A DNA stretch of 64,000 nucleotides from an uncultured Bdellovibrionales bacterium (GTDB lineage: Bacteria > Patescibacteriota > Minisyncoccia > Moranbacterales > UBA2206): contig CAZIFD010000002.1 in NCBI GenBank assembly GCA_964538685.1, positions 13,255-77,254 on the forward strand. The letters run 5' to 3'. How positions within the stretch are numbered: the stretch's first letter is position 1; each line of letters opens with the position of its first letter. A program made the translations under genes and the position numbers. Of the stretch, positions 10,613-30,218 are shown in pieces. The notes beneath the pieces are model-generated. The model did no database searches and was not told where the DNA came from. It saw only the letters and a list, made by a program, of their open reading frames with translations.

Positions 10613-10819
10613 ATCGCGACCGAAGGGAGCGTGCGAGGCGCAAGTATCATTCGTCAAAATCCTGCGGATTTTACCCGAAATACATTCGAACTTTGTCCAA
10701 TACACACCGCCAAAATTGAAAATCGGAATCGGAAGCAAAAATGCGGTCGGCGCGAAGCGCCGTCTGTTCTGAATTCCCCCCAAAAAATCCTGAATCTGAA
10801 AGGGTTCGCCAATACAATT

Positions 10820-14229: not shown

Positions 14230-15585
14230 ATGCAAAAAGCAAGCAACAACGAAATCGTAGAAGAAAAACTTCACGTGCAGTATGTTCCGACTGCTGATCT
14301 CAAAACCGCGGACTATAATCCGCGTAAATGGAGCAAGGAAGCTGAAGCTCAGCTTCAGGAGAGTATAATTTCTTATGGACTGGTTGATCCGTTTATCGTG
14401 AATGCCGCTCCACAAAGAAAAAATGTTTTAATCGGAGGACATTTCCGATTGAGTATTGCTAAAAAATTGGGAATCAAAGAGGTGCCAATTGTTTACATTA
14501 ATATTCCAGACTTGGAAAAAGAAAAAGAATTAAACATTAGGTTAAACAAAAACACTGGTGAGTTCGATTGGGAAATGCTGGCCACCTTTGACGAGCAATT
14601 TCTTTCGAAAGTTGGCTTCTCCTCTGAAGAATTAGACGACATTTTCCACATAGAAGATAATCCGGAAGAATTTGATTTAGAAAAAGAACTGGCCAAACTC
14701 AAGATAGATAAAATTGAAATCAAAAAAGGAGATGTTTGGATGTTGGGCGATTCGAAATTATGTTGCGGCGATTCAACCATTGAGGCAGATATGCAAAAAC
14801 TCATGAGAAATGAAAAAGCCGATATGTGCTTTACTGATCCACCTTACATCCTGGATTATCTTCATGGAAAAAAGAAAAATGGAAAGCCAATCACAGGATT
14901 CGGGGCAAAACGTGATCGTAGATATTTGGAAACCGATTCATTACCGGATAATTTTACAGAGTTGTGGATGAAAAACATAAAGACAATATCTAAAGATGAT
15001 TTCCATATTATTGTTTACGAAAATTGGAAGAATCTCAGAATCATCTGGGGCGAAATGGAAAAATATTGGAAAGTAAAAAACATGATAGTTTGGCATCTGC
15101 CCAATCGAGTGCAGGGCTTTGCCGCTAAATATAAGTTCTTCAATAAGCATGATATTGCGATGGTAGGTACTTCTCATGAGAAAATAGAGCTTAACACTGA
15201 TCCGGAAGACAAGATTTTGGAAGAAGAATATCAAACAGCTCTCTACGCTATTTCAGGTAAACCACATTGGGAAGGATATGAGAAAGGCAAAAGGATTTGT
15301 CCAACTGATTTCATTGAATTCAACGCTGATGATGCAAAACACTCTGGTCAAGGAATAATCTTCGGAACAAAACCCCTGGAAATTCTCATTCCATACATCA
15401 AAGTACTTACCAAGCGTGGAGATTTGATTGTGGAGCCATTTGGTGGATCAGGCTCGACTCTCATGGCCGCAACCAAAATGAATAGAAGATGCTACCTTAT
15501 GGAGAAATCGCCAGTATATGCTGAAGTGATAAAAAATAGGTGGGAGAAATTAACAGGCAGGAAGGCTCAAAAGATAAATGGATGA
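14230..15585 (+). CDS. ParB-like nuclease domain fused to a beta-class DNA methyltransferase (phage/plasmid-type orphan MTase)
   Basis: N-terminal ParB/Srx motifs (DYNPRKWSKE ... IGGHFRLSIAKKLG ... VPIVYI). Then motif IV FTDPPYILDY and C-terminal motif I VEPFGGSGSTLMAA. Confidence 0.8.
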   Translation: MQKASNNEIVEEKLHVQYVPTADLKTADYNPRKWSKEAEAQLQESIISYGLVDPFIVNAAPQRKNVLIGGHFRLSIAKKLGIKEVPIVYINIPDLEKEKELNIRLNKNTGEFDWEMLATFDEQFLSKVGFSSEELDDIFHIEDNPEEFDLEKELAKLKIDKIEIKKGDVWMLGDSKLCCGDSTIEADMQKLMRNEKADMCFTDPPYILDYLHGKKKNGKPITGFGAKRDRRYLETDSLPDNFTELWMKNIKTISKDDFHIIVYENWKNLRIIWGEMEKYWKVKNMIVWHLPNRVQGFAAKYKFFNKHDIAMVGTSHEKIELNTDPEDKILEEEYQTALYAISGKPHWEGYEKGKRICPTDFIEFNADDAKHSGQGIIFGTKPLEILIPYIKVLTKRGDLIVEPFGGSGSTLMAATKMNRRCYLMEKSPVYAEVIKNRWEKLTGRKAQKING

Positions 15586-15979
15586 GAAAAATAACTTTGA
15601 TGAAACAATTGAGAAAAGACAGGAAGAATTAAAGCAAGCCATTATTGACCAGCTCAAAGAAACTCCAATTATAACCGTAGCCTGCAAAAGATCAGGCGTT
15701 GGTCGAGCAACTTATTACCGTTGGCGAAGCGAAGATCCACAATTCACCATGGCGATTAATTCCGCCCTTAAAGAAGGTATTGAACTTATAAACGACCTGA
15801 GTGAGTCTCAAATAATCCAGCTTATCAAGGAAAAGAAGCTTCCGGCTATTTCGCTGTGGTTAAAACATAATAATCCTCGTTATGGAGGAAGAAATATGCG
15901 CAGAGATTTGCCTGTTGCTCCTGAGCCTTTAACTGAAGATGAAGAAAAGCTATTCAAAAAAGCTTTGGGGCTAAAATAA
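15578..15979 (+). CDS. Phage terminase small-subunit-like HTH protein
   Basis: HTH ITVACKRSGVGRATYYRWRSEDPQF. Overlaps the MTase gene by 8 bp and is followed directly by the terminase large-subunit ATPase ORF. Confidence 0.5.
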   Translation: MDEKNNFDETIEKRQEELKQAIIDQLKETPIITVACKRSGVGRATYYRWRSEDPQFTMAINSALKEGIELINDLSESQIIQLIKEKKLPAISLWLKHNNPRYGGRNMRRDLPVAPEPLTEDEEKLFKKALGLK

Positions 15980-15988
15980 CAAATCCGT

Positions 15989-17086
15989 ATGTTAGAAGAA
16001 ATAACAGAAAAAGAAATAGCGCAGATAATGCAAAATAAAAGATTAAGGCAACGGCTTGCTTTTGAAGATCCAATGTGGTTTTCCCTTATTTATCTAAGGC
16101 ATCATTTCGAATTTCCCTTTGCTCCTTTTCACATGGAAATGTTTCAGATAATGAAAAATTCAAAATATGAATTGATAGTAACAATGGCCTTCCGAGGATC
16201 GGGAAAATCTACCCTCTTAAACATGGTAAACACCCTATGGTCAATCCTAGGAAAACCGCGGAAAAAATTCGTGGTGATTGTCAGCCAAACGCAAGAACAA
16301 GCTAAAAATCATTTCTCTAACATTAAAGAAGAACTAGTGACCAACGATCTTTTGCGAGAAGATTTTGGACCATACACTGAAGATGAAAGGGAGTGGAAGA
16401 AAACATCCATGGATCTTGTTTATCATGAGTCAAAAATACTGTCGGTTTCTTGGGAGACAGGCATCCGTGGAATCAAATATAAATCGATGAGACCTGATCT
16501 TATCATCTGCGATGACCTTGAAGACAGTTCGGCTAGAGTGGATAAAATAAAACGAGATGAGCTCTATTCTCGCTTTGTCAGTGAGGTTCTTCCCTTGGGA
16601 AGTAAAGATACACGAATTATTGTTTTGGGAAATTTGATTTGTAAAGAATCACTTCTCATGCGACTCAAAGATGATATTGAAAATAATCGGCAAGATGGAA
16701 TATTTCGAGCCTATCCCATAATTGATAATAGCCGCCGTATTTTATGGCCAGAAAGATATAAAAATATTGAGGAGATTAAGAAGATATGGAAAAAAGTGCC
16801 AACAAGTGTATGGGCAAGTGAATATGTTTTAAAATCGATTGGTTTTAATGAAAATGGAGAAATGCCAGTTATTATTCTCGATAATTTATTTGGAAATGAT
16901 GATCCAATTTATAAAAAAGACGTGAATTTATCACATCAGAAAGCTCTTATATCTCAAATGAGAAAGTTTAATATTTCACCACCGAGCAAAAAAGAAATAA
17001 CATTTGTTTACTCAAGTGAAAATGATCCAGAATATTGGCACAACTTTGGAAATATATTTTTGGATAAGCCGAGATCAAAAAAATGA
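15989..17086 (+). CDS. Phage terminase large subunit, ATPase domain only (nuclease domain apparently missing; truncated or degenerate)
   Basis: Walker A FRGSGKST, Walker B LIICDDLED, coupling motif VLGN. At 365 aa it is shorter than complete TerL proteins. Confidence 0.6.
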   Translation: MLEEITEKEIAQIMQNKRLRQRLAFEDPMWFSLIYLRHHFEFPFAPFHMEMFQIMKNSKYELIVTMAFRGSGKSTLLNMVNTLWSILGKPRKKFVVIVSQTQEQAKNHFSNIKEELVTNDLLREDFGPYTEDEREWKKTSMDLVYHESKILSVSWETGIRGIKYKSMRPDLIICDDLEDSSARVDKIKRDELYSRFVSEVLPLGSKDTRIIVLGNLICKESLLMRLKDDIENNRQDGIFRAYPIIDNSRRILWPERYKNIEEIKKIWKKVPTSVWASEYVLKSIGFNENGEMPVIILDNLFGNDDPIYKKDVNLSHQKALISQMRKFNISPPSKKEITFVYSSENDPEYWHNFGNIFLDKPRSKK

Positions 17087-17087
17087 G

Positions 17088-17636
17088 TTATTTATAAAAC
17101 AACTCGTGATTTCTGAGTTCATTCTTTATTTCCAAATAATCTGGCATGAGTTTTTCAACCAGCGACCAGAACCTTCTGGAATGGTTAAATTCTTTTAAAT
17201 GGCATAACTCATGGACAATAATGTAGTCCTGTTGCTTTTTTGGCAGAAAAATAATTTTGTAGTTGAAATTGAGGTTCCTATTTTTAGAACAGCTACCCCA
17301 ACGAGTCTTGTGGTTTTTGATATTTAAAGCATTATATGAAAAAGCAAATTTTTTACTAAATACTTTGATGCGAGCAAGGACTAATTGAACTGCTTCGTCT
17401 TTATGCTTTAAATAGTCATCCTGAGAAAAAGTTCGGATAGCTTTGCTATCAATACTCTTAAAGAAATTTATTTTATCAGTCAGCCATTGTTTTTTGTCTG
17501 CAATGAATTTTTCAATTATTGTTTGATTTATTCCGAAAGGAGTAGTAATAACAACACTGCCATCACAATAAACAGCCAGTCGCATTCTTTTGGCTCTTTT
17601 GCTTTTCTTGATAATGTATTTCGGCTTTCTAATCAT
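17088..17636 (-). CDS. DUF45/YgjP-like (M48/WLM-type) metal-dependent hydrolase, the usual hsdR-downstream partner
   Basis: HELCHLKEFNHSRRFW (HExxH...H). Sits 5 bp downstream of hsdR, a common arrangement in Type I RM loci. Confidence 0.7.
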   Translation of the reverse strand: MIRKPKYIIKKSKRAKRMRLAVYCDGSVVITTPFGINQTIIEKFIADKKQWLTDKINFFKSIDSKAIRTFSQDDYLKHKDEAVQLVLARIKVFSKKFAFSYNALNIKNHKTRWGSCSKNRNLNFNYKIIFLPKKQQDYIIVHELCHLKEFNHSRRFWSLVEKLMPDYLEIKNELRNHELFYK

Positions 17637-17641
17637 ATTAC

Positions 17642-20557
17642 CTAAAATTTCTTTATGATAATATCCACAAGCCTATTCATGAATTTAGGAAAATCTTTCA
17701 CAGTAAACTTTTCCCTATAATCTCTCAGGATAAGCTCCTGTAGTGTTTGTTTTATGTCTTTGATAAACGTATCTCGCTTAGAAGATTCTTGCCATCCAGC
17801 ATCCGTATCATCTTCAATCCTTGCTCTCAGCTCTTTTACAAAATCTTTGATATCATTTTCTTGGGCATCGGAAATAAATTCTTGAGAAATAACATAAAGA
17901 GCATATTCTCTTAAATCCATCCCCAGATTTTTAGCTTCTTCTCCCTTTGTTTTAATATCTTTCATCAATTCTTCATAGCGTCGGATACGCTCTGCCAAAT
18001 CAATCTGATTCTGTTCAAATTCACGGCGAATTGCTCCAAGCCTTTCACTAAATTTCTGATACGCCGGATCCTCATCAAGATTGATAGAAATTTCTTGTTT
18101 CAGCATCTTTTCAAGATTGAGGGCTTTTTCCTCATCACCCATATCCTTTAGGCGTTCCAGCGTATAAAGCTCATTGACTTTAAGCTCACGAAAGTTTTTT
18201 GTGATACCCTCATAGTCTATAATATTACTTTCTCGAATAAGATTCTTAACTTTTTCTCCATACTCTTCCAACAAATAACGATCATCTTCACTACGAAAAT
18301 CTTTCAAAAATGCCAAATAGAAACTTGTTACCCATTCAAAAGGTCGAATATATTGTTTCAGGAACGGATCGGGAGAAAGAAATTCAAACAAGCTTTTTAG
18401 TTTGGCATATTTTTCGGCAAAATATTTTTGCTTGTCTTGATTGTCGATGAAAATCTTCAAACATCTGCGAAGATTATCCATTGAAGGATCTTCGATGTTA
18501 ACTCCTGTAAAAATTTTCATAACGTCGTTCATAACATCAGAAAATTTCGCCTTCACTCGTTCGATATCGATCATAGCCGAATCAATTACATCCTCGTCAA
18601 AGTCCAAAGCATTATAGAGATTTCTGGTAATTCCGTAATAATCAATGATTTTCCCAGCTTCCTTGTTTTTATAAACCCGATTCGTTCTGGCAATCGCCTG
18701 CAGGAGATTATGATCACGTAGGGGTTTATCAAGATACATCACTTGTTCAATTGGCGCATCAAAACCAGTTAACAACATATCGCACACAAGCAAAAACTTT
18801 AGAGATGAATTCGGATCTTTGAACTTTTCAATAATCTGCTCCCGCTCTTTTTTGCTGGTATTATAAATTTTCAAATCGTCAGCATCACTATTTGGATCCC
18901 CAGGAGAATACACAACCGCTGACCATTCTGCCGGAACGAGCTTGTCAAACAATTTTCTATAATCTGCCACCGCTTCGCGATCATAGGCAACTACCTGTGC
19001 CTTGAAACCATTTGGCTCAACATACAATTTATAATGCTCGACAATATCTCTTGCAACTGCCTCCATTCTTTTTGGAAGCTTTACTAATGCCGCCTTCTTG
19101 CCATATTTCTTTACCAATTCCGTCTTTTGTTTGTCAGACAAGTCACTCGCAATCTCATCGAATTGCTTATCTAGCTTCTCTTCATCAATGGAAAATTTAG
19201 AAAGACGTGCCTCGTAGGTAACTGGGATTGTCGCTCCATCATCAATGGCCTCTTGAATTGAGTAATAATCCAGATAGCGTTTTCCTTCACCTTCATAATT
19301 TCTGAAAGTGTTGGTATGAGTTTTATCTACTGGTGTGCCGGTAAACCCAAAGAAGAATGCTTTTTTGAAAGCATTTCTCATGTTTATTCCTGAAACTCCC
19401 TCATCTCCACGATGAGCCTCATCGGAAAGAATTATTACATTCTCATCCAAATTTTCGACTTCGTTGCCAAGCTCCGAAAACTTTTGAATAGTCGTGATAA
19501 ATATTCCGCGTTCCGGTGATTGTATTTTTTCTTCCAAGTCTTTTCGCGAGGTAACACGGACAATATTTTTTCCTCCGGCATTGGTAAAAGTATCAAATAT
19601 TTGTTGATCCAAGTCTACTCGATCCACCAAGATGAAGATTTTTGGATTTTGCAATAATTTATTAAAACGCAATTTCCAAGCCGTAAAAAACATTGTGAGA
19701 GTTTTTCCTGAACCTTGTGTGTGCCAAATAAGCCCTTGGTGTTTTTCCTTGTTCACTACACGATTAACAATCTTATTTGTGGCTCTTAGTTGTTGATAGC
19801 GAGCAATCTTTTTAACCAGTTTCTCTTTTTCTTTTTCAAACAAAATGAAATTTCCGACAATATCCAATAGATTAGGCTTGTTAAGTAGAACAAAGAGAGT
19901 CATTTCCAATTCCCCTCCCAGTTCTTTTTCCAAGTCCTCGTCTCGCCACTGTAAAAAGTATTGTTTTGGCGCATAAGTTGCTCCGTAAACAGTTTTTAGT
20001 CCGTCACTGGCAATATTAAAGCAGTTTGGGAAAAATAATTTGCGTGCCACTTTTTCATATCTTTTAATCTGATCAATTCCATTCTCAAAGGTCACACTTT
20101 CCGAAGCAGTTGGGCTCTTAGCTTCAATATCAACTAGCGGCAGACCATTTACAAAAATCATGACATCCGGTCGGATGTTTTCGGTGTCACCTTCGAAATA
20201 GAATTGATTAGTGGCAACAAAGTGATTATTTTCAGGATTTTCAAAATCAAGTAATTTATAATCCTGCATTTTTCCAGTCTTTGAACTTTTCAAGTTGATT
20301 CCTTCGCGCAAAGCCTTTAGAAATCCTTCATTAGTGTCAATTTTGTTTACTTCTCTAACTACACTGACAATCTCATCATCATTTGCGTCAGGATTATTTT
20401 TTTTGATTGCATTCTCAAGTAAGGACTTTATTATATATTCACTTTCAAGACTCCTAAGTTTTGAAAATTCTTCGGGTTTAATATATTCATAATCAAGTTT
20501 GTCTTTTATGAATTTGATTATGTAATTTTCAATTGTTACTTGTTCGTTAAATTTCAT
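17642..20557 (-). CDS. hsdR: Type I restriction enzyme R subunit
   Basis: N-terminal nuclease region. SF2 helicase motifs TQGSGKTLTM (motif I) and ILSDEAHRG (DEAH). 971 aa. Confidence 0.9.
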   Translation of the reverse strand: MKFNEQVTIENYIIKFIKDKLDYEYIKPEEFSKLRSLESEYIIKSLLENAIKKNNPDANDDEIVSVVREVNKIDTNEGFLKALREGINLKSSKTGKMQDYKLLDFENPENNHFVATNQFYFEGDTENIRPDVMIFVNGLPLVDIEAKSPTASESVTFENGIDQIKRYEKVARKLFFPNCFNIASDGLKTVYGATYAPKQYFLQWRDEDLEKELGGELEMTLFVLLNKPNLLDIVGNFILFEKEKEKLVKKIARYQQLRATNKIVNRVVNKEKHQGLIWHTQGSGKTLTMFFTAWKLRFNKLLQNPKIFILVDRVDLDQQIFDTFTNAGGKNIVRVTSRKDLEEKIQSPERGIFITTIQKFSELGNEVENLDENVIILSDEAHRGDEGVSGINMRNAFKKAFFFGFTGTPVDKTHTNTFRNYEGEGKRYLDYYSIQEAIDDGATIPVTYEARLSKFSIDEEKLDKQFDEIASDLSDKQKTELVKKYGKKAALVKLPKRMEAVARDIVEHYKLYVEPNGFKAQVVAYDREAVADYRKLFDKLVPAEWSAVVYSPGDPNSDADDLKIYNTSKKEREQIIEKFKDPNSSLKFLLVCDMLLTGFDAPIEQVMYLDKPLRDHNLLQAIARTNRVYKNKEAGKIIDYYGITRNLYNALDFDEDVIDSAMIDIERVKAKFSDVMNDVMKIFTGVNIEDPSMDNLRRCLKIFIDNQDKQKYFAEKYAKLKSLFEFLSPDPFLKQYIRPFEWVTSFYLAFLKDFRSEDDRYLLEEYGEKVKNLIRESNIIDYEGITKNFRELKVNELYTLERLKDMGDEEKALNLEKMLKQEISINLDEDPAYQKFSERLGAIRREFEQNQIDLAERIRRYEELMKDIKTKGEEAKNLGMDLREYALYVISQEFISDAQENDIKDFVKELRARIEDDTDAGWQESSKRDTFIKDIKQTLQELILRDYREKFTVKDFPKFMNRLVDIIIKKF

Positions 20558-20964
20558 AATTTTTTGCTTAAGAGAAAGTCGACTATTTCTAAGCCTTCAT
20601 TGTATTTATCGCAAATTTCTTCTTCCAATTTACTATAATCATCTTTTTCAATAATTGTATGCACTATATTATTTCTAAAATCAATATAACTATTAAGACT
20701 TTCGAATTCTTTTTTATTCAAATAACTAGAAACACGCGATTCACGTGCGGCTTGACCAAAATTTCTTGGTGCTTTTAATCCAACTATTTTGTTTTTCTTA
20801 TTGCATTCACAACTAAATTCCCGTATTAATCCCTCGATGACACTGGCCTGCAAAAGAAAAGCCTGTATAAATCTAGGTTCTTGATCTTCATCTGGAGCAA
20901 ATAAGAAGTCTCCTTGAGCTCTGTTTATTAGCAACTTTGCATTTTCAACAATTTCTTTTTTCAT
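20554..20964 (-). CDS. Hypothetical small protein with an HEPN-like Rx4H motif (DFRNNIVHT)
   Basis: 136 aa, typical HEPN size. Located between hsdS and hsdR. Overlaps hsdR by 4 bp. Confidence 0.35.
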   Translation of the reverse strand: MKKEIVENAKLLINRAQGDFLFAPDEDQEPRFIQAFLLQASVIEGLIREFSCECNKKNKIVGLKAPRNFGQAARESRVSSYLNKKEFESLNSYIDFRNNIVHTIIEKDDYSKLEEEICDKYNEGLEIVDFLLSKKL

Positions 20965-20966
20965 AT

Positions 20967-21260
20967 CTACTTTTTCAGCAGTCTGTTTCTAGGTGGTTTT
21001 TCTTGTTTAATAATTTTCTTTTCCAATATCTCAGCCTTTTCGACAGTTCCCGTTTCAATAACTCTAAAATTTGTACCACCTTTAAACTGACCTTTATGCT
21101 CGTAAACTCTATCTCCAAGACGACCCGCCTTTGCTTTTCCAACATAAAGCAACTCGTCTTTAGCATTTACTATTTTATACACACCAGCACTTTTACCAGA
21201 CAATTTTTCTACGTTTGTCTTGGTGATTTGTCTCTTTGGACTGAAGCTTTGTTTCTTCAT
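20967..21260 (-). CDS. Small standalone GIY-YIG nuclease-domain protein
   Basis: GVYKIVN...LLYVGKA...RLGDRVYEH...EKAEILEKKII...PPRN matches the GIY-YIG core (GIY, YIG, Arg, His/Glu, C-terminal E..LI..P.N). 97 aa. Confidence 0.7.
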   Translation of the reverse strand: MKKQSFSPKRQITKTNVEKLSGKSAGVYKIVNAKDELLYVGKAKAGRLGDRVYEHKGQFKGGTNFRVIETGTVEKAEILEKKIIKQEKPPRNRLLKK

Positions 21261-21347
21261 AGATTTTTTATTAATTTATTATTTACCCTAACTTCCCAAC
21301 TCAAAGATCTTGCGTCAGACCTTTTTTTGAGTTGAGCAGTTTAGATT

Positions 21348-22094
21348 TTAACTTTTAAATTTTTTTCTTATCATATTAAAAATTTTATCTGAAAATTTTT
21401 CAAAAGAATTTCTTGCCTCTTTATAGTCAGCCTCTTTCAGCTTAATCGGATCATTAATATTATATCTTTTTTTAATCTCTATATTCCTGATTTGCTTTAA
21501 AAACTTATCATCAATTATCGCTGCATTATGAATTATTACGTTTCGCAAAGCTTGATACTCAATAAGTTTATTCTTCAATTCATCTTCGACAATTAAATCA
21601 AGATGCAAATATTCTTTCAAGAAATTAATAGTGCTTTGTAAGTCTTGGAAATTATATTTTTCTCTTAAAGATGATCCGATTATCAAGCTGCCTATTGTTG
21701 GAGATGAATATTTTAAAATATTTGGATCAAAGCTAATTTGCTTTTTTTCCGGCCAATTAATTATATCAGGATAATTATCTATGATATTTTTAATCAAGTC
21801 GTTCATAAATGACTCGAATGTAGCAATTACTAAAACAACTGACTGGTTATAAATAATCTTGTATTTTTCAATCAATATGGGATGGTTTTTGATATTTCTT
21901 ATCTGATCAATAACGATATCTAATTTTTGCTTGTAGGGTAAAAAAGCAGACATCCTTTCGTTTTCTCTTTTTAGGTTTCCAAGCATTTCCAAAAGAATAT
22001 TTCCCGCGTCTGAGCCAATTTCGCTTAATTGATCAATTTGTTTAAGATTATTCTTAAAAGTTTCTAAAACATTATTGATTTTTTCCATATACAC
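21348..22094 (-). CDS. Hypothetical protein with an HEPN-like Rx4H motif (ALRNVIIHN)
   Basis: 248 aa. Overlaps the hsdS 3' end by 23 bp. No other recognisable domain. Confidence 0.35.
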   Translation of the reverse strand: MYMEKINNVLETFKNNLKQIDQLSEIGSDAGNILLEMLGNLKRENERMSAFLPYKQKLDIVIDQIRNIKNHPILIEKYKIIYNQSVVLVIATFESFMNDLIKNIIDNYPDIINWPEKKQISFDPNILKYSSPTIGSLIIGSSLREKYNFQDLQSTINFLKEYLHLDLIVEDELKNKLIEYQALRNVIIHNAAIIDDKFLKQIRNIEIKKRYNINDPIKLKEADYKEARNSFEKFSDKIFNMIRKKFKS

Positions 22095-23271
22095 TAATCC
22101 TCACTTTCCCACTCAAAAGATCCTGCGCCAGACCCTTTTTAAGTTGGGTAAGTTTAGATTTTAACTTTTTATTAATTGAAATTTTTTCATCAATGGCTGA
22201 AAGAATTTCTGCAATTTTATCTTGTTCATCTTTTTCCGGTTTCAAAATCAATAGGGGTCTAAGTTTTTCTAGGTTTATGTTTTTTTGTGCAGACTGGGTT
22301 GAAATCTTGTTTAAATAATCTTTCCTTGTCCTCAAAAAATACTCCAAAAAAACACTATTCATTTGATAATTGGAAGTTATTCCTACTAAGCTGTCAGGAA
22401 AACATGAATCAAATTCAAGTATTCCAGTATCTCCAATATTAGCGGCTATAGTTAAAACTATTGTTCCTTTCTTGAACATTCTGCTAACCTTTAATCCATT
22501 TTCATTTAGTGTTTGGCTATACTTTGTAATTTTACCATTTGAACCTATAACATCACCTGTTTGAATAAATGGAATATCACCGCCATAAAATCTTGCGTCA
22601 TTCCTTGGTCTATGAGAAAACTTACCCCTTTCAACCTGAGCAATTTCCTCTAATTTAACAACGTCCCATTCCTCCGGAATTTCACCAAGCTTAGTTTTTT
22701 TGAATTTTTTATGACCAATTCCGCGCGTAAAAAGATCCTGCATCAAACCTTTTTTCAGTTTCCCCGCTTTATCAATCACTTCTTGCGTTTTCAAAATATC
22801 CTCATCTACAGATCCAAGAATTTCAGCGATTTTTTGTTGCTCAGTTTTTGATTCTGGCATCCAAATATCAAGGTTTTGATACTGGGAAATATAATATCGT
22901 TTATGGTTTGCAATAGGAAATTTTATAAGATTTATTACTTCATAAATAAATTTCAGATCAGAACTTTGATCTTTGCATTTCAAAATTTTGATTGCCGACG
23001 ACTTTACCTTGAATGGAAAATCTACGAACTTGCTATCGGTAGTAAAATCGTCAAATATAATGACTGGAAAATCTTTATATATTCCAAAATCTTCATCGGT
23101 ATATCCCAAAATAAAAGATTTATTAGCAGTCAAGACAGGTGTTTTATTATTGGAATCATAATTTGTGCTTTTTACAATATACTTATCCGGCCTTTCATAA
23201 TCCAAAACGTCACTTATTTTTCTAAGTGTCCATCCTTGGGGAGTATTTTTTTGTGCAGTATTATTTTTCAT
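22072..23271 (-). CDS. hsdS: Type I restriction-modification specificity subunit
   Basis: Two target-recognition domains separated by conserved repeats (LKKGLMQDLFTRG ... LKKGLAQDLLSGKVRI). 399 aa. Confidence 0.8.
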   Translation of the reverse strand: MKNNTAQKNTPQGWTLRKISDVLDYERPDKYIVKSTNYDSNNKTPVLTANKSFILGYTDEDFGIYKDFPVIIFDDFTTDSKFVDFPFKVKSSAIKILKCKDQSSDLKFIYEVINLIKFPIANHKRYYISQYQNLDIWMPESKTEQQKIAEILGSVDEDILKTQEVIDKAGKLKKGLMQDLFTRGIGHKKFKKTKLGEIPEEWDVVKLEEIAQVERGKFSHRPRNDARFYGGDIPFIQTGDVIGSNGKITKYSQTLNENGLKVSRMFKKGTIVLTIAANIGDTGILEFDSCFPDSLVGITSNYQMNSVFLEYFLRTRKDYLNKISTQSAQKNINLEKLRPLLILKPEKDEQDKIAEILSAIDEKISINKKLKSKLTQLKKGLAQDLLSGKVRISVYGKNQ

Positions 23272-23275
23272 AATG

Positions 23276-24058
23276 TTATTGATTGTCTTGCGACCTTAAT
23301 GCTTCCGCAAGTTCTCCTGGGGAAAATATTTTTATTTTCAATCCGATATCGTCAAATTCCTTTTGGTTTTGATTGATTCTGTTTAAAATAGTTTCTTTAT
23401 CTAGTGTCAGAAAATAGTCTAGTTCAGATTTTTCTGCTTGAAAAATATGTTCCGCATCGTCAATATCGAAAAATGATTTTAGTCTTGAAAAAAGCGGGTT
23501 CTCCACACTACCTCCTCCTCCGAAAGTTGAAGTCCCGAAGGTAACTGAACCAAAACAGGCAGATGTATGCTCAATTAAATTTGCCGACGGCACATTAGTA
23601 ATCAAATTGCAAAAGAATAAAATTAAACCTTTCTTTTTTTCATCATCTATTTTTTGTATTTCTTCCTTGGCTTTGGATGAAGTAAAAAATTTTATTTCAT
23701 CCTTTTGATATCGTTCAGAAATCTCAGCTAATGATTGAATTTCTTTTTCTTTGACCCTAAAGTCATTTATCCTCGAAATAATATTTGTATCCAAATAAAC
23801 TTTTGGTGTATTATCAGTTTTTTCATATTCAATCTCAATATGTCCCAATCTGGAATGATCATAATAAATCGCATTAACAACCTTTAAAAAATTCTTTATG
23901 CCAGCAGAATTACTGTGTTCTAGAATGTCACCCTCGACTATGGGCAAGGTCACATCATTAATATAAATTTTGTTTTGCACGCTAGCTTTAATATTTTTTA
24001 TCCTGCTGGAATCTTTTTTTATTAAAACTAAATTGTCTGTCATGAAATGATCCATCAT
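23276..24058 (-). CDS. Two-domain protein: unknown N-terminal domain (~85 aa) + PIN-like nuclease domain
   Basis: VYLDTNIISRIN (PIN beta-1 with the first Asp), a later Glu, DIDDAEHIF and FLTLDK acidic positions. A Gly-rich linker (GTSTFGGGGS) is also present. Confidence 0.45.
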   Translation of the reverse strand: MMDHFMTDNLVLIKKDSSRIKNIKASVQNKIYINDVTLPIVEGDILEHSNSAGIKNFLKVVNAIYYDHSRLGHIEIEYEKTDNTPKVYLDTNIISRINDFRVKEKEIQSLAEISERYQKDEIKFFTSSKAKEEIQKIDDEKKKGLILFFCNLITNVPSANLIEHTSACFGSVTFGTSTFGGGGSVENPLFSRLKSFFDIDDAEHIFQAEKSELDYFLTLDKETILNRINQNQKEFDDIGLKIKIFSPGELAEALRSQDNQ

Positions 24059-24864
24059 ATATTTTTATTCCCATTTACTTTTTGAGCTATGTCTGCAATT
24101 GCCTTTTTAACTAAGGATTCTTTTTTATTCTTCACATCTTCCTCAATTTTCTGATCAAGAATAAGGATGATCGATAGCTTTAGGGCAGGAAAATAGGCAA
24201 GGCATTCCTCTTCACTTAATTCATGAACTCCTTTGCTTAAAATTCCATAAACTACTTTCATTTCCACCAACTGACTTGGGAGGTAATCTTTTAGAAAATC
24301 AACTTTTTCATCCATTCTTTTTTTCAAGAAATCATCATCAGAAATTCCTAACTTATCTTTATGCTCTTTATATGTATTCCAAATAACATTTTCAAAAATA
24401 CGTCTTAAATACACGAGAGATCCTGCTCCGGCGCCGTGTGCCATGAGGCCAATTGATTTTTTTAAGTCATGCAGATCCTGCTTGGGCAACACCTTATCAT
24501 ATTTTTTACCAAGTTCAGCAAACTGTATGTCAGCAATAGAAGGAAACTGTCCTACTTTCACAATGATTTCATTATTATCATACACGAAAAATCTTAGAAC
24601 ATCATTGCTTTTTCTTTTACAAGTTAAGGTAATTTTATAAAAATTATTAAAACTTGATTCATATTGTCCATTAACACGACAGGAGTAAATTTTGTATGTA
24701 GTATCAATTCCATTTGCTGCACTGTATGCATCTACATCACCTTCGTGAATATCCTCCTCTAATTGCTCTTTTTTTATAAAATCGTAAAGAGGAGTTTCAA
24801 AATAAAAGTCGTGCTTATTAACATTTTTTAATTCTTCTGCTGGCTGTTCTTTTTCTTCTGGCAT
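24055..24864 (-). CDS. Hypothetical protein (269 aa), translationally coupled to the downstream PIN gene by a 4-bp overlap
   Basis: No confident motif. The C-terminal half (LVYLRRIFENVIW ... SKGVHELSEEE) is faintly reminiscent of HEPN/DUF4145-type domains found in RM loci. Confidence 0.3.
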   Translation of the reverse strand: MPEEKEQPAEELKNVNKHDFYFETPLYDFIKKEQLEEDIHEGDVDAYSAANGIDTTYKIYSCRVNGQYESSFNNFYKITLTCKRKSNDVLRFFVYDNNEIIVKVGQFPSIADIQFAELGKKYDKVLPKQDLHDLKKSIGLMAHGAGAGSLVYLRRIFENVIWNTYKEHKDKLGISDDDFLKKRMDEKVDFLKDYLPSQLVEMKVVYGILSKGVHELSEEECLAYFPALKLSIILILDQKIEEDVKNKKESLVKKAIADIAQKVNGNKNI

Positions 24865-24890
24865 ATTTTTAGCAAATTAGTTTTTTAGAG

Positions 24891-26195
24891 TTATAGCAAA
24901 ACTACGGACTGTTTTGCTCGCGCAACACAAACCCCGTCTTTTATTGCATAGCATTCAGCATAATGTCTGCCTTTATATTTTGTGCTTTCGGGGACATTTC
25001 TTGTTTGATCACAAGTAATTTCTCCTCTTGGTTCCGTGCAATTGTCATCATTTTTTACCTTCCAATTGTAAGTACATCCATCTATGCGATGTAGTCTTTT
25101 GAATTTCAGGTATCTGCCAGAATCAATCACCCCTTGATTATTTAATGGCCTTTGGGTATTGCCAGCTTTATCTGTGATATCGGCAGATATAGAAAATTGA
25201 GAATATTGTGGGTCAGTAAAAGTTGGTATCTTTTTATCAAATAAATATTCCTCTGCAAGCGATTTTCTCTTATGCAGATTTACAGTCAACAAAAAATCAA
25301 TACTATCTTTTTCGTCCAAATTTTCAAGTTTTATCAAAAAATAATCTCGCACTTGTTTAATTTTCTCTTTTTGCTCTGGGGTAAATTTTTCAAGGTAATC
25401 ATCAATAAATTTATCGCCATTCGCCCTATCCTTTATTTGATTCGGATTGTTTATAATATCTGGCAAATCGACGAAAAATTTAAATATCGCATCGAATACG
25501 CATGTGTCAGAAAATTGTTGAAATAATTTTGTGATGACTTGCTCAAGATGAAACGACTTCAATTTCAATTTCTCATCGAAATCATTTAGGTTATTTTTCC
25601 ACTTTTTAACAAGTTTTACGACCTTCCTAAAGTCTTGATTTTGTCCCACCAGTGTAGCAACCTTGATATAGCCCCTAGGATCAGATTTTATCCAGTCATG
25701 AATATTATTAGAATCCCAAGTCATACTTTTTCTAAAATCATGATTTTTTTCTTTTAAAATCTCCGGAACCATATAGGTATCCTGCTGAAATTCGTTTTTC
25801 CCATAAGAATATGCAGGAACAATATCTACGGAAAATACTTCTTCATCATCTTTAGAATATATAACTGTAACTGAGTGAGCCTGTAGCGATGAACTTACAG
25901 TAAGACTTGTCGGATTCACATAATCACTATTAATTTGACTAAACAATTTTTTAAGCGTTTCCGATGGATCATGACTATTTTCACTCCATTGACCTAAAAT
26001 GTACAAAATATCAAGATCATGAATAGGCGTAATGGAAGTAAAGCGAGGATATGAACCAATTTGAATACAGTTATCTATTCCAAACAAATCATTAAATGAT
26101 TGATAAATTTTGTTTACCAAGTTCTGTTCAGAGGTACTCGGGGATAGACTCCTTGCAAACTCCCTCAATTTTGAATTGAATTTATCTTTTTTCAT
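24891..26195 (-). CDS. Pol-beta-superfamily nucleotidyltransferase of the CD-NTase/SMODS type (candidate CBASS-like cyclase)
   Basis: IGSYPRFTSITPIHDLDILYI matches the GS-x9-13-[DE]h[DE]h pattern. FSVDIVPAYSY matches the third acidic residue in an hDhhPa strand. Cys-rich C-terminal tail. 434 aa. Confidence 0.5.
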   Translation of the reverse strand: MKKDKFNSKLREFARSLSPSTSEQNLVNKIYQSFNDLFGIDNCIQIGSYPRFTSITPIHDLDILYILGQWSENSHDPSETLKKLFSQINSDYVNPTSLTVSSSLQAHSVTVIYSKDDEEVFSVDIVPAYSYGKNEFQQDTYMVPEILKEKNHDFRKSMTWDSNNIHDWIKSDPRGYIKVATLVGQNQDFRKVVKLVKKWKNNLNDFDEKLKLKSFHLEQVITKLFQQFSDTCVFDAIFKFFVDLPDIINNPNQIKDRANGDKFIDDYLEKFTPEQKEKIKQVRDYFLIKLENLDEKDSIDFLLTVNLHKRKSLAEEYLFDKKIPTFTDPQYSQFSISADITDKAGNTQRPLNNQGVIDSGRYLKFKRLHRIDGCTYNWKVKNDDNCTEPRGEITCDQTRNVPESTKYKGRHYAECYAIKDGVCVARAKQSVVLL

Positions 26196-26727
26196 AACTT
26201 GTGCTAAGCAAGGTAGTTATAATATCATTCATGAGGCGGCCGCGCATATTAACAACCGTGGTAAATTGTTCATTATTGATCGCTTTCATCATTTCCTTGG
26301 AAATAACATTTTCTGGCGGAGAGAATTCCGGAAAATAGAATATAAATCCTGTGGCAGCATTTTTATACGAAAGTATTTTTTTTATATCATCCTCGCTAAA
26401 GGATTGATAATGAACCAGCACTAGGCTCTCATTCTTTATTTTAGTTAATGATTGATTGGTGATTTGCTCAATATTTTTTTCTCTAAAAACCCCGGTATCA
26501 ATAAGATCAGTCTTAATATTTCTATAAGTCTCATCATTAGCCGCAATTTTTATTTTTCTGGTCCATCTGCCAAATCCAAGTCTTAAAAATAATGGGAAGA
26601 TGCCCATAGACCAACTTATAATTGCCCAAATAAATAATCCTATCGCAAAAATAGTTGTTAAAACACCAATAATGTCTATAAAAAGTTTAATAAAATTTAA
26701 CAAAGTCATAAATTTATTTGATCCCAA
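26182..26727 (-). CDS. Two-TM-helix membrane protein with a ~125-aa cytoplasmic domain (candidate Cap15/SLATT-like CBASS effector)
   Basis: Two N-terminal hydrophobic helices (LLNFIKLFIDIIGVLTTIFAIGLFIWAIISWSMGIFPLFL), then a soluble domain. Overlaps hsdM (14 bp) and the NTase gene (14 bp). Confidence 0.4.
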   Translation of the reverse strand: MGSNKFMTLLNFIKLFIDIIGVLTTIFAIGLFIWAIISWSMGIFPLFLRLGFGRWTRKIKIAANDETYRNIKTDLIDTGVFREKNIEQITNQSLTKIKNESLVLVHYQSFSEDDIKKILSYKNAATGFIFYFPEFSPPENVISKEMMKAINNEQFTTVVNMRGRLMNDIITTLLSTSYEKR

Positions 26728-28414
26728 GATCTTTTAAATAATTATCTACTTTTTTATCTGCTATATCTCGTTCTTTTTCAATTTCTTTCAGTTCCTTCCA
26801 AGCAGATTTCACATCCACAATTTCCTCAACGTCTCCGTTTTCTACGTACCGACGGACATTTAGGTTGAAGCCATTCTCTTCGATTTCCTTGAGAGGAACC
26901 ACTTTGGCATATTTCTCGATGTTGCGATATCCCTCATAAGCCGAAACTATCTTTTCAATATCTTTTTTCCTGAGACGATTCTGATTTTTTCCTTCTTCAA
27001 AGTCCTTTTCCGCATCGATAATCAGAATCTTGTTCCTATGCGTCTCCGGCTTGTTTTTATTGAAAATAATGATCGCTACCGGAATGCCAGTCCCATAAAA
27101 AAGTTTAGGAGGAAGTGCGATAATAGCCTCAATCAAATCATTTTTGATGATTTGTTCACGGATAGCTCCTTCTGCTCCGCCACGAAAGAGAACGCCATGA
27201 GGAAGTAATATTCCGGCTCGTCCGTTTTCGTTCATTGATTTGATCATGTGCAAAACAAAAGCATAATCAGCCTTTTTCTCTGGCGGCATTTCATAACCAG
27301 AGAGTCTGCCATATTTATCAGACTTGAACATTTCAGATTCCCACTCTTTGATTGAGTAGGGTGGGTTTGCAACGCAGATATCGAATGTCTTGAGTGAACC
27401 GTCCAGGTTTAAGAATTTCGGATCAGCCAAAGTATCTCCACGCTGGATATCAGCACTATCAAGTCCGTGTAAAAACATATTGATCTTCGCAATCGCAAAA
27501 GTCCCGATGTTTATTTCTTGTCCATAAAGATAAAGCGAGCGTGCTTTTCTCTCGCCAGCTTTTTCCTTGAGATAATGATAGGCTTCCAAAAGAAAACCAC
27601 CTGATCCAACCGTCATGTCATAAATATGATCTTTCTCGTGAGGTTTTAGGATTTGAATGATAACTCGCTCGGTTTCGCGCGGAGAATAAAATTCACCACC
27701 TTTTTTCCCAGCATCGGCCGCAAATTGCTCAATGAGGTATTCATAAGCATCGCCGAGCAGATCCGAACTGATATAGCTATCTCCAAAATTGTACTGTGAA
27801 AAATGATTAACCAGCCTTTGCAGTGTTTCATTTGGAAATTTATCTTTATTGGCAAAATCAAGATCATCAAAAATTTTGTCGAGCTTTGGGCTATTGGCGT
27901 TTGTCAGTTTGTCAAAAATTTCATTAAGTCTCTGTCCGATTCCTCCGGCTTGTTTTTGAATAACTTCCCAGCGACAATCTTTGGGGACTTGGAAGCGGTG
28001 ATTGTAATCAGCGCGTGCGATTGTTTCATCATGAAATTCATCCAGCACTTTTTTATATTCTTCATCCCAAGTATCGCTGATACGTTTATAAAAGAGTAAA
28101 CCGAAAATATATTTTTTGTAATCTGAGCTGTCTATTTTTCCTCTTAAAATATCAGCACTTCTCCAAAGGAATTGTTTGAGGTGAGCCAAGGTCATTTTTT
28201 CGCCAGTCCCGCTAATTTCACTGAGAACTGCCCCCATCTTTTTATCGATAAATTTTTCCAGATCTTCTATTCTATATTTTCTGTCTGCCCTGGTTCCGAC
28301 TCGCAGCGGCGTTATCTTTCCCTCTTTTTCCCAATTGCGAAGAGTGTCCTTGTTTATTCCAAGAAGTTCGGATGCCTGTTTAATTGAGAGTAATTTTGGC
28401 GAATTTTTGCTCAT
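26714..28414 (-). CDS. hsdM: Type I RM N6-adenine methyltransferase subunit with an N-terminal MerR/excisionase-type HTH extension
   Basis: N-terminus LLSIKQASELLGINKDTLRNWEKEGKITP (HTH). HsdM N-domain. Motif I DMTVGSGGFL. Motif IV VANPPYS. 566 aa. Confidence 0.9.
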   Translation of the reverse strand: MSKNSPKLLSIKQASELLGINKDTLRNWEKEGKITPLRVGTRADRKYRIEDLEKFIDKKMGAVLSEISGTGEKMTLAHLKQFLWRSADILRGKIDSSDYKKYIFGLLFYKRISDTWDEEYKKVLDEFHDETIARADYNHRFQVPKDCRWEVIQKQAGGIGQRLNEIFDKLTNANSPKLDKIFDDLDFANKDKFPNETLQRLVNHFSQYNFGDSYISSDLLGDAYEYLIEQFAADAGKKGGEFYSPRETERVIIQILKPHEKDHIYDMTVGSGGFLLEAYHYLKEKAGERKARSLYLYGQEINIGTFAIAKINMFLHGLDSADIQRGDTLADPKFLNLDGSLKTFDICVANPPYSIKEWESEMFKSDKYGRLSGYEMPPEKKADYAFVLHMIKSMNENGRAGILLPHGVLFRGGAEGAIREQIIKNDLIEAIIALPPKLFYGTGIPVAIIIFNKNKPETHRNKILIIDAEKDFEEGKNQNRLRKKDIEKIVSAYEGYRNIEKYAKVVPLKEIEENGFNLNVRRYVENGDVEEIVDVKSAWKELKEIEKERDIADKKVDNYLKDLGIK

Positions 28415-28690
28415 AGTTATGATTTACAAAATTTATGTTTTTTCTTACCTTTTCATATGTTAGCACGACAACTTTAATCTTGTCAATACTTTTTACAAAA
28501 ATTCTGATGATTTCATAGGTTATTATATTTAAGTGCTATTGAGCAGAAAGACACTCTTTTTGTAAGTTTATGAGGATTTAAGGCTATTTAAAGCCAATAA
28601 GTTATCAACAGGTAACCTACTTGGGACGCTCTGGACTCTTTCATGAGAGTGCGTCATTCATTGAGTTGTAACAAATAAGACCAAAATCCT

Positions 28691-30019
28691 ATGGATTACC
28701 CAAAAACCAACCAAATAGGGGCGATTACCAAATCAGAGCCAATTGCGATGCCTGTCCGATATTGTCTCTACGCCCGCAAAAGTACCGAGAGTGAGGAGCG
28801 CCAAATACTCTCTATTGATTCCCAGATCAAGGAGATGCTTCAACTGGCAGAGCGTGAAAGCTTGGAGATAGTTGAAATAAAGCGCGAATCGCATAGTGCC
28901 AAGGAAACAGGGCAAAGACCGATTTTTAATGAAATTGTTGAAGAAATAAAACAAGGAAAATTCAACGGTATTCTGACTTGGGCACCGGATAGAATTTCCA
29001 GAAATGCTGGAGATCTTGGAAAAATAGTAGATCTGATGGACAGCGGAGCTTTAAAAGAAATCAGAACTTATGGGCAACGATTTACTGATTCGCCAAATGA
29101 AAAATTTCTACTAATGATTTTGGGATCTCAAGCTAAACTAGAAAATGATAATCGTGGCATCAATGTAAAGCGAGGACTTCGTGCCAGATGCGAAATGGGA
29201 CTATGGCCAACGGTGGCACCGCTTGGATATCTCAATCAAAGGCACATGGACAAAAAATGCCAGCTGATTCAGGATCCACAAAGAGCGTCAGTTATAAAAA
29301 AGATATTTGAAAAAGTAGCTTATGAACATTATTCGGGCAGGAAAATATATCATTGGTTAAGATTTGAGCTAAATTTCTATACCAGAGGAAATAAGCCACT
29401 GACATTAGGTGGGGTGTATCGGGTTCTTGAAAATCCTTTCTACTATGGAGTCTTTGAATACCCAGTCAAAAGCGGAAATTGGTATACCGGAAAACATGAA
29501 CCGATAATCACCCAGGAGATATTCGAAAAAGCCCAGGCCTGGCTAAAAAGAGATAAAATTGTCCGGGAAAATAAAGAGTTCGCCTTTACTAAATTGTTCA
29601 CCTGCGGATATTGCGGATCGGGAATATCCGCCGAAGAAAAATACAAACAACTGAAAGACGGTACACACGCCAGATATATCTACTATTCCTGCTCGAGAGC
29701 CAGAGACCGGCATTGCAAAAACAAATATATCCGCGAGGAAGAATTGATCACCGAGCTTCTAAAAATAATCGATCAAATGAATATCAATGAACTAGGAATG
29801 AGGCAGAAATTGGAAGATGAAATCAATCGCTTCAATATTTTTCAAAAATCAGTGATGGGAGAAAAACACAAAATTCAAAATACCAAAGATACAGATATCC
29901 GAAATTATGCCAAATACCTACTTAAAGAGGGGTCGGTATCGGAAAAAAGAGAACTTCTCGGAAATCTAAGATCGAGGATAATATACAAAGATAAAAAACT
30001 GGAGCTGGTGAAAGAATAG
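28691..30019 (+). CDS. Large serine recombinase (integrase), adjacent to tRNA-Ser
   Basis: RYCLYARKSTESEE (catalytic Ser motif), resolvase and recombinase domains, Cys-rich zinc ribbon (CGYCGSG ... YYSCSRARDRHC). 442 aa. Ends 112 bp from the tRNA-Ser 3' end. Confidence 0.85.
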   Translation: MDYPKTNQIGAITKSEPIAMPVRYCLYARKSTESEERQILSIDSQIKEMLQLAERESLEIVEIKRESHSAKETGQRPIFNEIVEEIKQGKFNGILTWAPDRISRNAGDLGKIVDLMDSGALKEIRTYGQRFTDSPNEKFLLMILGSQAKLENDNRGINVKRGLRARCEMGLWPTVAPLGYLNQRHMDKKCQLIQDPQRASVIKKIFEKVAYEHYSGRKIYHWLRFELNFYTRGNKPLTLGGVYRVLENPFYYGVFEYPVKSGNWYTGKHEPIITQEIFEKAQAWLKRDKIVRENKEFAFTKLFTCGYCGSGISAEEKYKQLKDGTHARYIYYSCSRARDRHCKNKYIREEELITELLKIIDQMNINELGMRQKLEDEINRFNIFQKSVMGEKHKIQNTKDTDIRNYAKYLLKEGSVSEKRELLGNLRSRIIYKDKKLELVKE

Positions 30020-30058: not shown

Positions 30059-30131
30059 TTCAATTTTTTATGTCTTCGGGTCGCTCATTCGTCTCGATAG
30101 AATGGGTCTATCCGATAAAAAATTGTCGATG

Positions 30132-30218
30132 CGGAGAGAGGGAGATTCGAACTCCCGAGACCCGTTAAGATCTACTTGCTTTCCAAGCAAGCGCACTCGA
30201 CCACTATGCGATCTCTCC
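30132..30218 (-). tRNA. tRNA-Ser (anticodon GGA), class II with long variable arm; no encoded CCA
   Basis: Reverse complement GGAGAGATCGCATAGTGGTCGAGTGCGCTTGCTTGGAAAGCAAGTAGATCTTAACGGGTCTCGGGAGTTCGAATCTCCCTCTCTCCG. 7-bp acceptor stem. Anticodon stem CTTGC/GCAAG with loop TTGGAAA. Long variable arm. T-arm GGGAG-TTCGAAT-CTCCC. Confidence 0.85.

Follow-up and report, generated by a model that had tools for sequence, protein, structure and literature searches.

Two gene slots in a Type I restriction-modification operon of Patescibacteria, probably refilled repeatedly with unrelated defence cassettes

Genes embedded in defence operons have been surveyed on a large scale, with 17,432 of them reported inside BREX, DISARM or Type I restriction-modification (RM) operons (Payne et al., 2024, bioRxiv 10.1101/2024.01.29.577857). 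This "guilt-by-embedding" approach, applied to Type I RM, BREX, DISARM and Hma, showed 96.7% of embedded genes on the same strand, led to the building of PDC models, and yielded seven embedded candidate systems whose anti-phage activity was confirmed by experiment. Two-gene systems within Type I RM have also been validated experimentally: TgvAB, in the VPI-2 Type I RM cluster of Vibrio cholerae, which protected more in the full cluster than alone (PMC11411939), and DarTG2, between hsdS and hsdR in enteropathogenic Escherichia coli (EPEC), in a study that proposed this junction to be a recombination hotspot (PMC12255303). The nuclease PrrC occurs almost exclusively inside Type I RM (Payne et al., 2024). 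The present work concerns a Type I RM operon with seven embedded genes, at positions 17088-28414 on the minus strand of a 64,000-nucleotide stretch of contig CAZIFD010000002.1 (positions 13,255 to 77,254), hereafter the window. The original prediction took embedding to be known for single genes such as PrrC and saw here either an undescribed composite system or a strong integration hotspot. Its premise is out of date in view of the works cited above; multi-gene defence embedding in Type I RM is already established, and the locus represents an unusually rich case of it, no new kind of system. In our reading, which we consider likely, the hsdM/hsdS and hsdS/hsdR junctions are two slots repeatedly refilled with unrelated, co-oriented defence genes, the cassettes being swapped by recombination and acting as parallel layers. 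The operon consists of eleven tightly packed, co-directional open reading frames (ORFs) in the order hsdM, four genes, hsdS, three genes, hsdR and ygjP, listed below from its 5' end, with the spacing to the following gene.

26714..28414, minus: hsdM, Type I methyltransferase with an N-terminal HTH_17/MerR-type helix-turn-helix (HTH) (Pfam, PADLOC); 14-bp overlap
26182..26727, minus: slot 1, module 1a, putative CBASS (cyclic-oligonucleotide-based anti-phage signalling system) membrane effector, 181 aa, with N-terminal transmembrane (TM) segment(s) (PADLOC); 14-bp overlap
24891..26195, minus: slot 1, module 1b, CD-NTase, 434 aa, SMODS and AGS-C (PADLOC, Pfam); 26-bp gap
24055..24864, minus: slot 1, module 2, p269, 269 aa, predicted N-terminal five-strand beta domain and C-terminal HEPN-fold domain; 4-bp overlap
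23276..24058, minus: slot 1, module 3, p260, 260 aa, N-terminal domain of ~80 aa and C-terminal PIN-like nuclease domain; 4-bp gap
22072..23271, minus: hsdS, specificity subunit with two target-recognition domains (TRDs) (Pfam, PADLOC); 23-bp overlap
21348..22094, minus: slot 2, module 4, p248, 248 aa, GTG start, predicted HEPN fold with an R184-x4-H189-N190 motif; 87-bp gap
20967..21260, minus: slot 2, module 5a, minimal GIY-YIG nuclease, 97 aa (Pfam, 25.5 bits); 2-bp gap
20554..20964, minus: slot 2, module 5b, p136, 136 aa, small HEPN-like protein, partner of the GIY-YIG gene; 4-bp overlap
17642..20557, minus: hsdR, Type I restriction/translocase subunit (TIGR00348, PADLOC); 5-bp gap
17088..17636, minus: ygjP-like (formerly DUF45) metallopeptidase, last gene of the operon (Pfam YgjP-like, 7e-44)

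The eleven genes of the original prediction were all recovered at the same coordinates, and seven of the ten junctions are indeed gaps or overlaps of at most 14 bp, the exceptions being CD-NTase/p269, hsdS/p248 and p248/GIY-YIG. Gene calling on a Logan contig (assembly of run SRR5581382) gave the identical order. The predicted hsd and DUF45 genes were borne out by domain searches. HsdM matches N6_Mtase (6e-107), HsdM_N (8e-26) and HTH_17 (4e-9) in Pfam, hence the HTH fusion, and MTase_I in PADLOC (1e-143); HsdS matches Methylase_S in two stretches (3e-27) and PADLOC Specificity_I over residues 8-393 (1e-61); HsdR matches TIGR00348 (1e-170) and PADLOC REase_I (1e-134), with HSDR_N, DEAD/ResIII and T1RH-like_C domains found on the identical HsdR product of the Logan contig. 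A ygjP-like gene lies directly 3' of hsdR in almost all related loci and is the conserved terminal gene of this RM lineage. With an N6_Mtase HsdM, a two-TRD HsdS and an HsdR predicted to join a nuclease to a superfamily 2 (SF2) translocase, the locus belongs to Type I RM as far as its genes can tell, and reads as a complete operon (HTH-hsdM, hsdS, hsdR, ygjP-like) of a Patescibacteria (candidate phyla radiation, CPR) lineage. The HTH covers HsdM residues 8-59, and the same fusion is present in all three related loci for which Pfam calls had been precomputed (L082, L087 and L171).

The evidence for two slots comes first from a census of 82 related loci, namely 80 metagenome loci with an hsdR 66-96% identical to that of the window, together with L082 and L087; hsdM, hsdS, hsdR and ygjP were mapped in all of them. 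The number of genes held by each junction was distributed as follows.

hsdM/hsdS slot (slot 1), 48 evaluable loci: no gene in 7, one in 20, two in 13, three in 6, four in 2
hsdS/hsdR slot (slot 2), 61 evaluable loci: no gene in 9, one in 36, two in 11, three in 4, four in 1

Cargo thus occupied slot 1 at 41 of the 48 loci that could be evaluated, and slot 2 at 52 of 61. Where both slots could be evaluated (48 loci), cargo was present in 46 and occupied both slots in 35, with 44 distinct architectures; at least two genes were held in both slots by five loci. The cargo amounted to 146 proteins in 78 families, of which 143 were co-oriented with the operon, with a median intergenic gap of 1 bp. 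These 48 relatives carry zero to six cargo genes in total, and the window, with seven, is the fullest seen; its cargo is not different in kind from theirs. The original prediction had proposed a search of relatives for an empty hsd arrangement, and hsdM-hsdS-hsdR-ygjP without any cargo was indeed found in L142 and L145. Judged by domain matches, cargo across the related loci belongs mostly to known or candidate defence families, including ThsB-type TIR (9), Shedu SduA (7), Bro-N/PDC-S13 (7), PDC-M50 (5-7), NYN (4), DUF4145 (4), PD-T7-4 (4), DUF3644 (2), MazF (2), KAP NTPase (2), SMODS (1) and Abi_alpha (1), several of these genes matching the PDC models of Payne et al. (2024); Fic was found separately in L117. 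In three loci (L141, L143 and L158), a single ORF of 728, 356 and 470 aa, respectively, stands between hsdM and hsdR, with no hsdS detectable by phmmer; this ORF could be a divergent hsdS, or hsdS could have been replaced by, or fused with, cargo.

Turnover of the slots was most apparent in the closest relative, L089, whose HsdR protein is 96% identical to that of the window. At the DNA level, the two loci are 93% identical over the serine recombinase and hsdM, up to a point 16 bp short of the hsdM stop codon. From 14 bp ahead of the hsdR start codon, they are 91% identical over hsdR and ygjP, and over the remaining island backbone 95-96% identical, with no detectable DNA homology between them in either slot. 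Only three conserved segments match in hsdS, so that the TRDs, and hence the specificity, differ. Slot content and hsdS TRDs are thus all that sets the window apart from L089, and the two form a near-isogenic pair. The four cargo genes of L089 have no Pfam match. An additional gene of 568 aa lies directly after ygjP in L089 (L089:13470-15220), at the point matching ~17067-17088 of the window, pointing to a third variable site beyond the 3' end of the operon.

A trace of how cargo may have entered was found in slot 2.

21261..21364, minus: duplicated, degenerate remnant of an hsdS 3' end, ~100 bp (alignment to hsdS 3' ends)

This remnant spans the 87-bp gap before the GIY-YIG gene and the last 17 bp of p248, whose stop codon lies inside it. 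It aligns with the 3' end of the window's own hsdS (22072-22176), including a direct repeat that is 77% identical (21293-21356 vs 22106-22169), and is closer to the intact hsdS 3' end of L169 (L169:3265-3369), which directly precedes the GIY-YIG gene there. It looks like the scar of a cassette insertion by recombination in the conserved C-terminal segment of hsdS. In the simplest reading, an hsdS-GIY-p136-hsdR ancestor would have taken up a p248 cassette through the conserved hsdS 3' segment, leaving this scar.

The seven embedded genes appear to form five independent modules (CBASS, p269, p260, p248 and the GIY-YIG/p136 pair) and not one composite machine, because the four non-CBASS modules each recur without the others and because a CD-NTase relative directly adjoins hsdS in one other locus, L167. 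The first module has the features of an ordinary two-gene Type I CBASS. The original prediction of a 2TM protein is a membrane protein matching the PADLOC '1TM' effector (PDLC00664) over its full length (1.8e-50), and its CD-NTase-like neighbour matches a PADLOC cyclase (PDLC00785, 1.3e-165), Pfam SMODS (8e-7, 29.8 bits for a cut-off of 26.5) and AGS_C (2e-14), with GS...DLD...D catalytic residues. No Cap2/Cap3, HORMA/TRIP13 or QueC/TGT domain was found in the neighbouring genes by Pfam and PADLOC scans. As in known Type I CBASS, full-length cyclase and TM-effector matches, SMODS plus AGS-C and overlapping genes are observed; the locus differs in that the pair lies inside an RM operon, instead of standing alone, and in that the effector is upstream of the cyclase.

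Among the other embedded proteins, p269, listed as hypothetical by the original prediction with a call for structure prediction, has a C-terminal domain modelled as a four-helix HEPN fold. It carries no canonical Rx4-6H: H214 is invariant within S-K-G-V-H-E, with no arginine four to six residues before it, and the invariant R154 lies on another helix. The family is widespread: it counts at least 1735 clusters, and its relatives were confirmed at 242 sites in GTDB species-representative genomes. The arrangement hsdM-p269-hsdS occurs in nine of 79 genome loci, and in L067 p269 directly follows a weak hsdM match; other neighbours include methylases (Type I/III and other), SNF2 helicases, TIR and Mrr genes, which are enriched, and in many of the 79 loci p269 is nowhere near RM. 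The idea that p269 might be a core fifth RM gene came from the nine GTDB loci and was rejected, p269 being one of 78 cargo families, with seven occurrences, and being absent from many loci. Likewise, p269 and p260 do not form a pair, as no p260 homolog adjoins p269 in the 79 loci and L087 holds p260 only, and the 263-aa gene of L169 was ruled out as a p269 relative. In three Bacteroidales/Muribaculaceae loci (L047, L056 and L077), distant p269 homologs directly follow an ORF of ~970 aa, and in the pooled neighbour census, not resolved by locus, three upstream neighbours carry SNF2/Helicase_C and three downstream ones N6_N4 methylase; a recurring RM-like context other than Type I is only suggested by these observations.

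The PIN call for p260 was supported by its family. Four acidic residues, D90, E133, D201 and D220, stand in PIN order and do not vary among 27 sequences, and family members weakly match PIN_3 (11), PIN_12 (9) and PIN (8), with a best value of 4.4e-5; the window protein itself has no such match. Homologs fall into 52 clusters, most consisting of the PIN part alone (the C-terminal ~175 residues). The gene is found without p269 in L087 (hsdM-BroN-p260-hsdS-DUF3800-hsdR), beside a Type III RM system in L084 and beside OLD-like/AAA genes in L086. In slot 2, p248 is predicted to adopt a four-helix HEPN fold, and R184 and H189 of its Rx4H motif are invariant in 14 sequences (Rx4-6H), in line with the HEPN-like call of the original prediction. 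This rare family (17 clusters) occurs without the GIY-YIG/p136 pair in three RM loci, following hsdS in two of them (L082 and L119) and directly preceding hsdR in the third (L121), as well as in non-RM contexts (L081 and L083). The GIY-YIG call also holds, as the 97-aa protein passes the Pfam cut-off (25.5 vs 22.6 bits), resembles UvrC N-terminal domains and has the GVY...YVG...R...E...N signature. The second HEPN-like call, for p136, stands in a weaker form: an RNNIVH motif is present and relatives weakly match DUF4145, HepT and RiboL-PSP, but the RiboL-PSP HEPN match (1.4e-4, 22.2 bits) is below the cut-off of 28.4. The p136 family counts 16 representative clusters among 1.84 billion proteins, and a scan of viral contigs found no relatives of p136 or of the GIY-YIG protein. 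The pair recurs at 90% identity or more as hsdS-GIY-p136-hsdR, without p248, in L169-L174; a trio of p248, GIY-YIG and p136 was therefore rejected, p248 also occurring without the pair. Profile comparison with PDB sequences gave no real match for p269, p260 or p248; searches of Pfam, NCBIfam and PADLOC at relaxed thresholds yielded no usable hit for these three proteins, p269 being left with no family annotation, and no PADLOC v2.0.0 model, PDC and HEC models included, matched p269, p260, p248, GIY-YIG or p136.

In accordance with the definition of an embedded defence system (Payne et al., 2024), the cargo is flanked on both sides by hsd genes on the same strand. It shares with the embedded genes of that study its nesting between subunits, its co-orientation (143/146 here) and its mix of mostly known or candidate defence families with many unannotated ones, and differs in that both junctions hold multi-gene cargo (seven genes in five modules) and in that the host belongs to Patescibacteria. 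TgvAB and DarTG2 are likewise two-gene defence systems inside a Type I RM operon; their cargo is a GmrSD-like Type IV system and a DarT/DarG toxin-antitoxin, respectively, whereas CBASS, HEPN, PIN and GIY-YIG genes are found here, and one junction is used there but two here. No separate RptR-like regulator is present in this operon, the HTH being fused to HsdM instead; it may autoregulate the operon, replacing a separate C-protein or RptR-like regulator. Compared with HEPN abortive-infection or toxin proteins (the AbiA HEPN domain, AbiV, HepT/SO_3166 and the Csm6 HEPN), the proteins described here have no Pfam or NCBIfam HEPN membership at the sequence level, in p269 the arginine of the motif has been replaced (SKGVH) and a beta-sheet N-terminal domain is added, and no MNT-type antitoxin gene is present.

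The surroundings of the operon contain the following features.

28457..28486, minus: candidate sigma-70-like promoter, TTGACA-18-TAACAT with TG, in the hsdM/recombinase intergenic region
28691..30019, plus: large serine recombinase (Resolvase, Recombinase and Zn_ribbon_recom), divergent from hsdM
30131-30218, minus: tRNA-Ser, adjoining the recombinase; a pyruvate kinase gene is also near
10631-12394, plus: second large serine recombinase, on the other side of the operon
14230-15585: ParB-fused N6/N4 methylase, on the other side of the operon
15578-15979: small-terminase-like gene, on the other side of the operon

A recombinase divergent from hsdM is found in ~20 related loci. Because of the recombinases, the tRNA-Ser and this recurrent recombinase-hsdM arrangement, the RM operon and its cargo appear to ride on a mobile island of ~20 kb, with serine recombinases near both ends and beside tRNA-Ser; the ~20-kb stretch looks like a mobile island or a satellite-like element. 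The G+C content is ~0.29-0.33 across both slots (20500-26500) vs ~0.35-0.41 in hsdM, hsdR and the flanking genes, which is consistent with imported, foreign cargo. The candidate promoter is the joint-best minus-strand match to the consensus (10/12), and the sole such match upstream of hsdM with a TG.

From a mechanistic point of view, the turnover of slot content between conserved flanks is directly supported by the data, as are the identities of the hsd genes and the CBASS pair, the folds and motifs of the cargo proteins, the separate occurrence of the four non-CBASS modules and the hsdS-end duplicate beside the p248 cassette. The conserved hsd ends may act as homology arms, through which cassettes would be swapped or stacked by homologous recombination. 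The array would be read from the promoter region upstream of hsdM, leading to co-expression of the cargo with RM, and the modules may then work as parallel layers: RM would cut unmodified DNA, the nucleotide signal of CBASS would open its membrane effector, and the HEPN, PIN and GIY-YIG proteins could act as abortive-infection-type nucleases.

Several points weigh against this reading of the slots as stores of parallel, co-expressed defence layers. Promoter and terminator scans of the region performed no better than on shuffled sequences, which makes the candidate promoter no more than a pointer and leaves gene spacing as the reason why a single transcript for RM and cargo is plausible. The related loci are metagenome contigs analysed with a crude ORF caller, so that single cargo counts may err by one. 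Motifs and weak profile matches are what identify p260 as a PIN protein and p136 as a HEPN protein, and RNase activity of p269 is uncertain given its SKGVH motif in place of the canonical Rx4-6H. Finally, the four unannotated families, none matching PADLOC v2.0.0, are candidate defence genes only.

A first alternative is an integrated composite, in which some or all of the embedded nucleases (p269, p260, p248 and GIY-YIG/p136) would be PrrC-like guards, held latent with HsdMSR and freed by a phage anti-restriction protein, with CBASS wired in. The strict co-orientation and the stop/start overlaps with hsd genes are in line with it, as is the fact that RM or RM-associated helicase components make up about one third of the tightly linked same-strand neighbours of p269 (summed Pfam matches). 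PrrC itself, a latent RNase encoded inside the hsd operon in EcoprrI, offers a precedent for the coupling of RM to a nuclease and for RM-dependent latency (Payne et al., 2024), and the greater protection by TgvAB within its full RM cluster points in the same direction. However, each of the four non-CBASS modules was also found in a locus without Type I RM or with other cargo, about two-thirds of p269 homologs are not RM-adjacent, and the slots are freely replaced between near-identical hsd backbones. PrrC moreover combines an ABC-ATPase-like N-terminal domain with an anticodon nuclease (ACNase) domain, whereas no cargo gene has this architecture: in Pfam, NCBIfam and PADLOC scans none of the embedded genes matched an ATPase or PrrC, the nucleases here being without an ATPase domain, and p269, p260 and p248 occur outside Type I RM as well. 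The integrated composite thus seems unlikely, and a PrrC-like dependence of the cargo on the RM complex, while possible, is less likely because the modules also occur without Type I RM. We hold to be just as doubtful a related proposal, in which this RM lineage would be an integron-like platform whose HTH-HsdM promoter drives captured cassettes, with at least the HEPN-type cargo, notably the large p269 family, which often lies beside Type I, Type III and other methylases, held latent by RM and firing when restriction is blocked; if true, the guard logic of PrrC would be generalised to many nuclease families.

It seems very unlikely that the HEPN, PIN and GIY-YIG genes are selfish toxin or addiction passengers, or decaying remnants, that stabilise the island without being immune effectors. 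HEPN and PIN domains are indeed typical of the toxins in toxin-antitoxin systems, p136, p248 and p260 belong to rare families, and the hsdS scar may be a sign of sloppy recombination at the site. Nevertheless, all the ORFs are intact, with catalytic-type residues conserved across homologs, domain scans detected no MNT-type or other antitoxin partner, cargo of the sister loci belongs mostly to validated defence families such as ThsB, Shedu and PD-T7-4, and anti-phage function was confirmed for embedded candidate systems by Payne et al. (2024). As for an assembly chimera, a gene order created by metagenome binning or assembly across the similar hsd genes of co-existing strains, it is hardly credible even though the source is a metagenome-assembled genome, closely related hsd loci are many in similar samples and conserved hsd segments could mis-join reads, since the identical order stands on two contigs, one of 46 kb in Logan and one of 143.7 kb (NCBI, Logan, ENA), the junctions are seamless with overlapping start and stop codons, and the hsdS-GIY-p136-hsdR and hsdS-p248 sub-arrangements were recovered from unrelated samples.

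Of the two possibilities raised by the original prediction, the integration hotspot is the one that fits, with both junctions filled with variable cargo (78 families and 44 architectures in 48 loci), empty at L142 and L145, and with L089 differing in the slots and TRDs; the undescribed composite system is not sustained, the four non-CBASS modules recurring separately and multi-gene embedding having been published already. What the reading of two refillable slots adds to these published cases is an extreme instance in Patescibacteria, with seven genes, five modules and two slots, a near-isogenic pair that differs in these slots, and an hsdS-end insertion scar that points to a mechanism. Four candidate defence families absent from PADLOC v2.0.0 (p269, p260, p248 and GIY-YIG with p136) are nominated by embedding. 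The locus thus offers a clean, quantified natural example of defence genes accumulating inside a Type I RM operon. The genomes of Patescibacteria are small and are reported mostly to lack CRISPR, and it is for this reason that such a compact and apparently mobile island, which may join RM and its cargo in several layers, bears on phage resistance in these bacteria.

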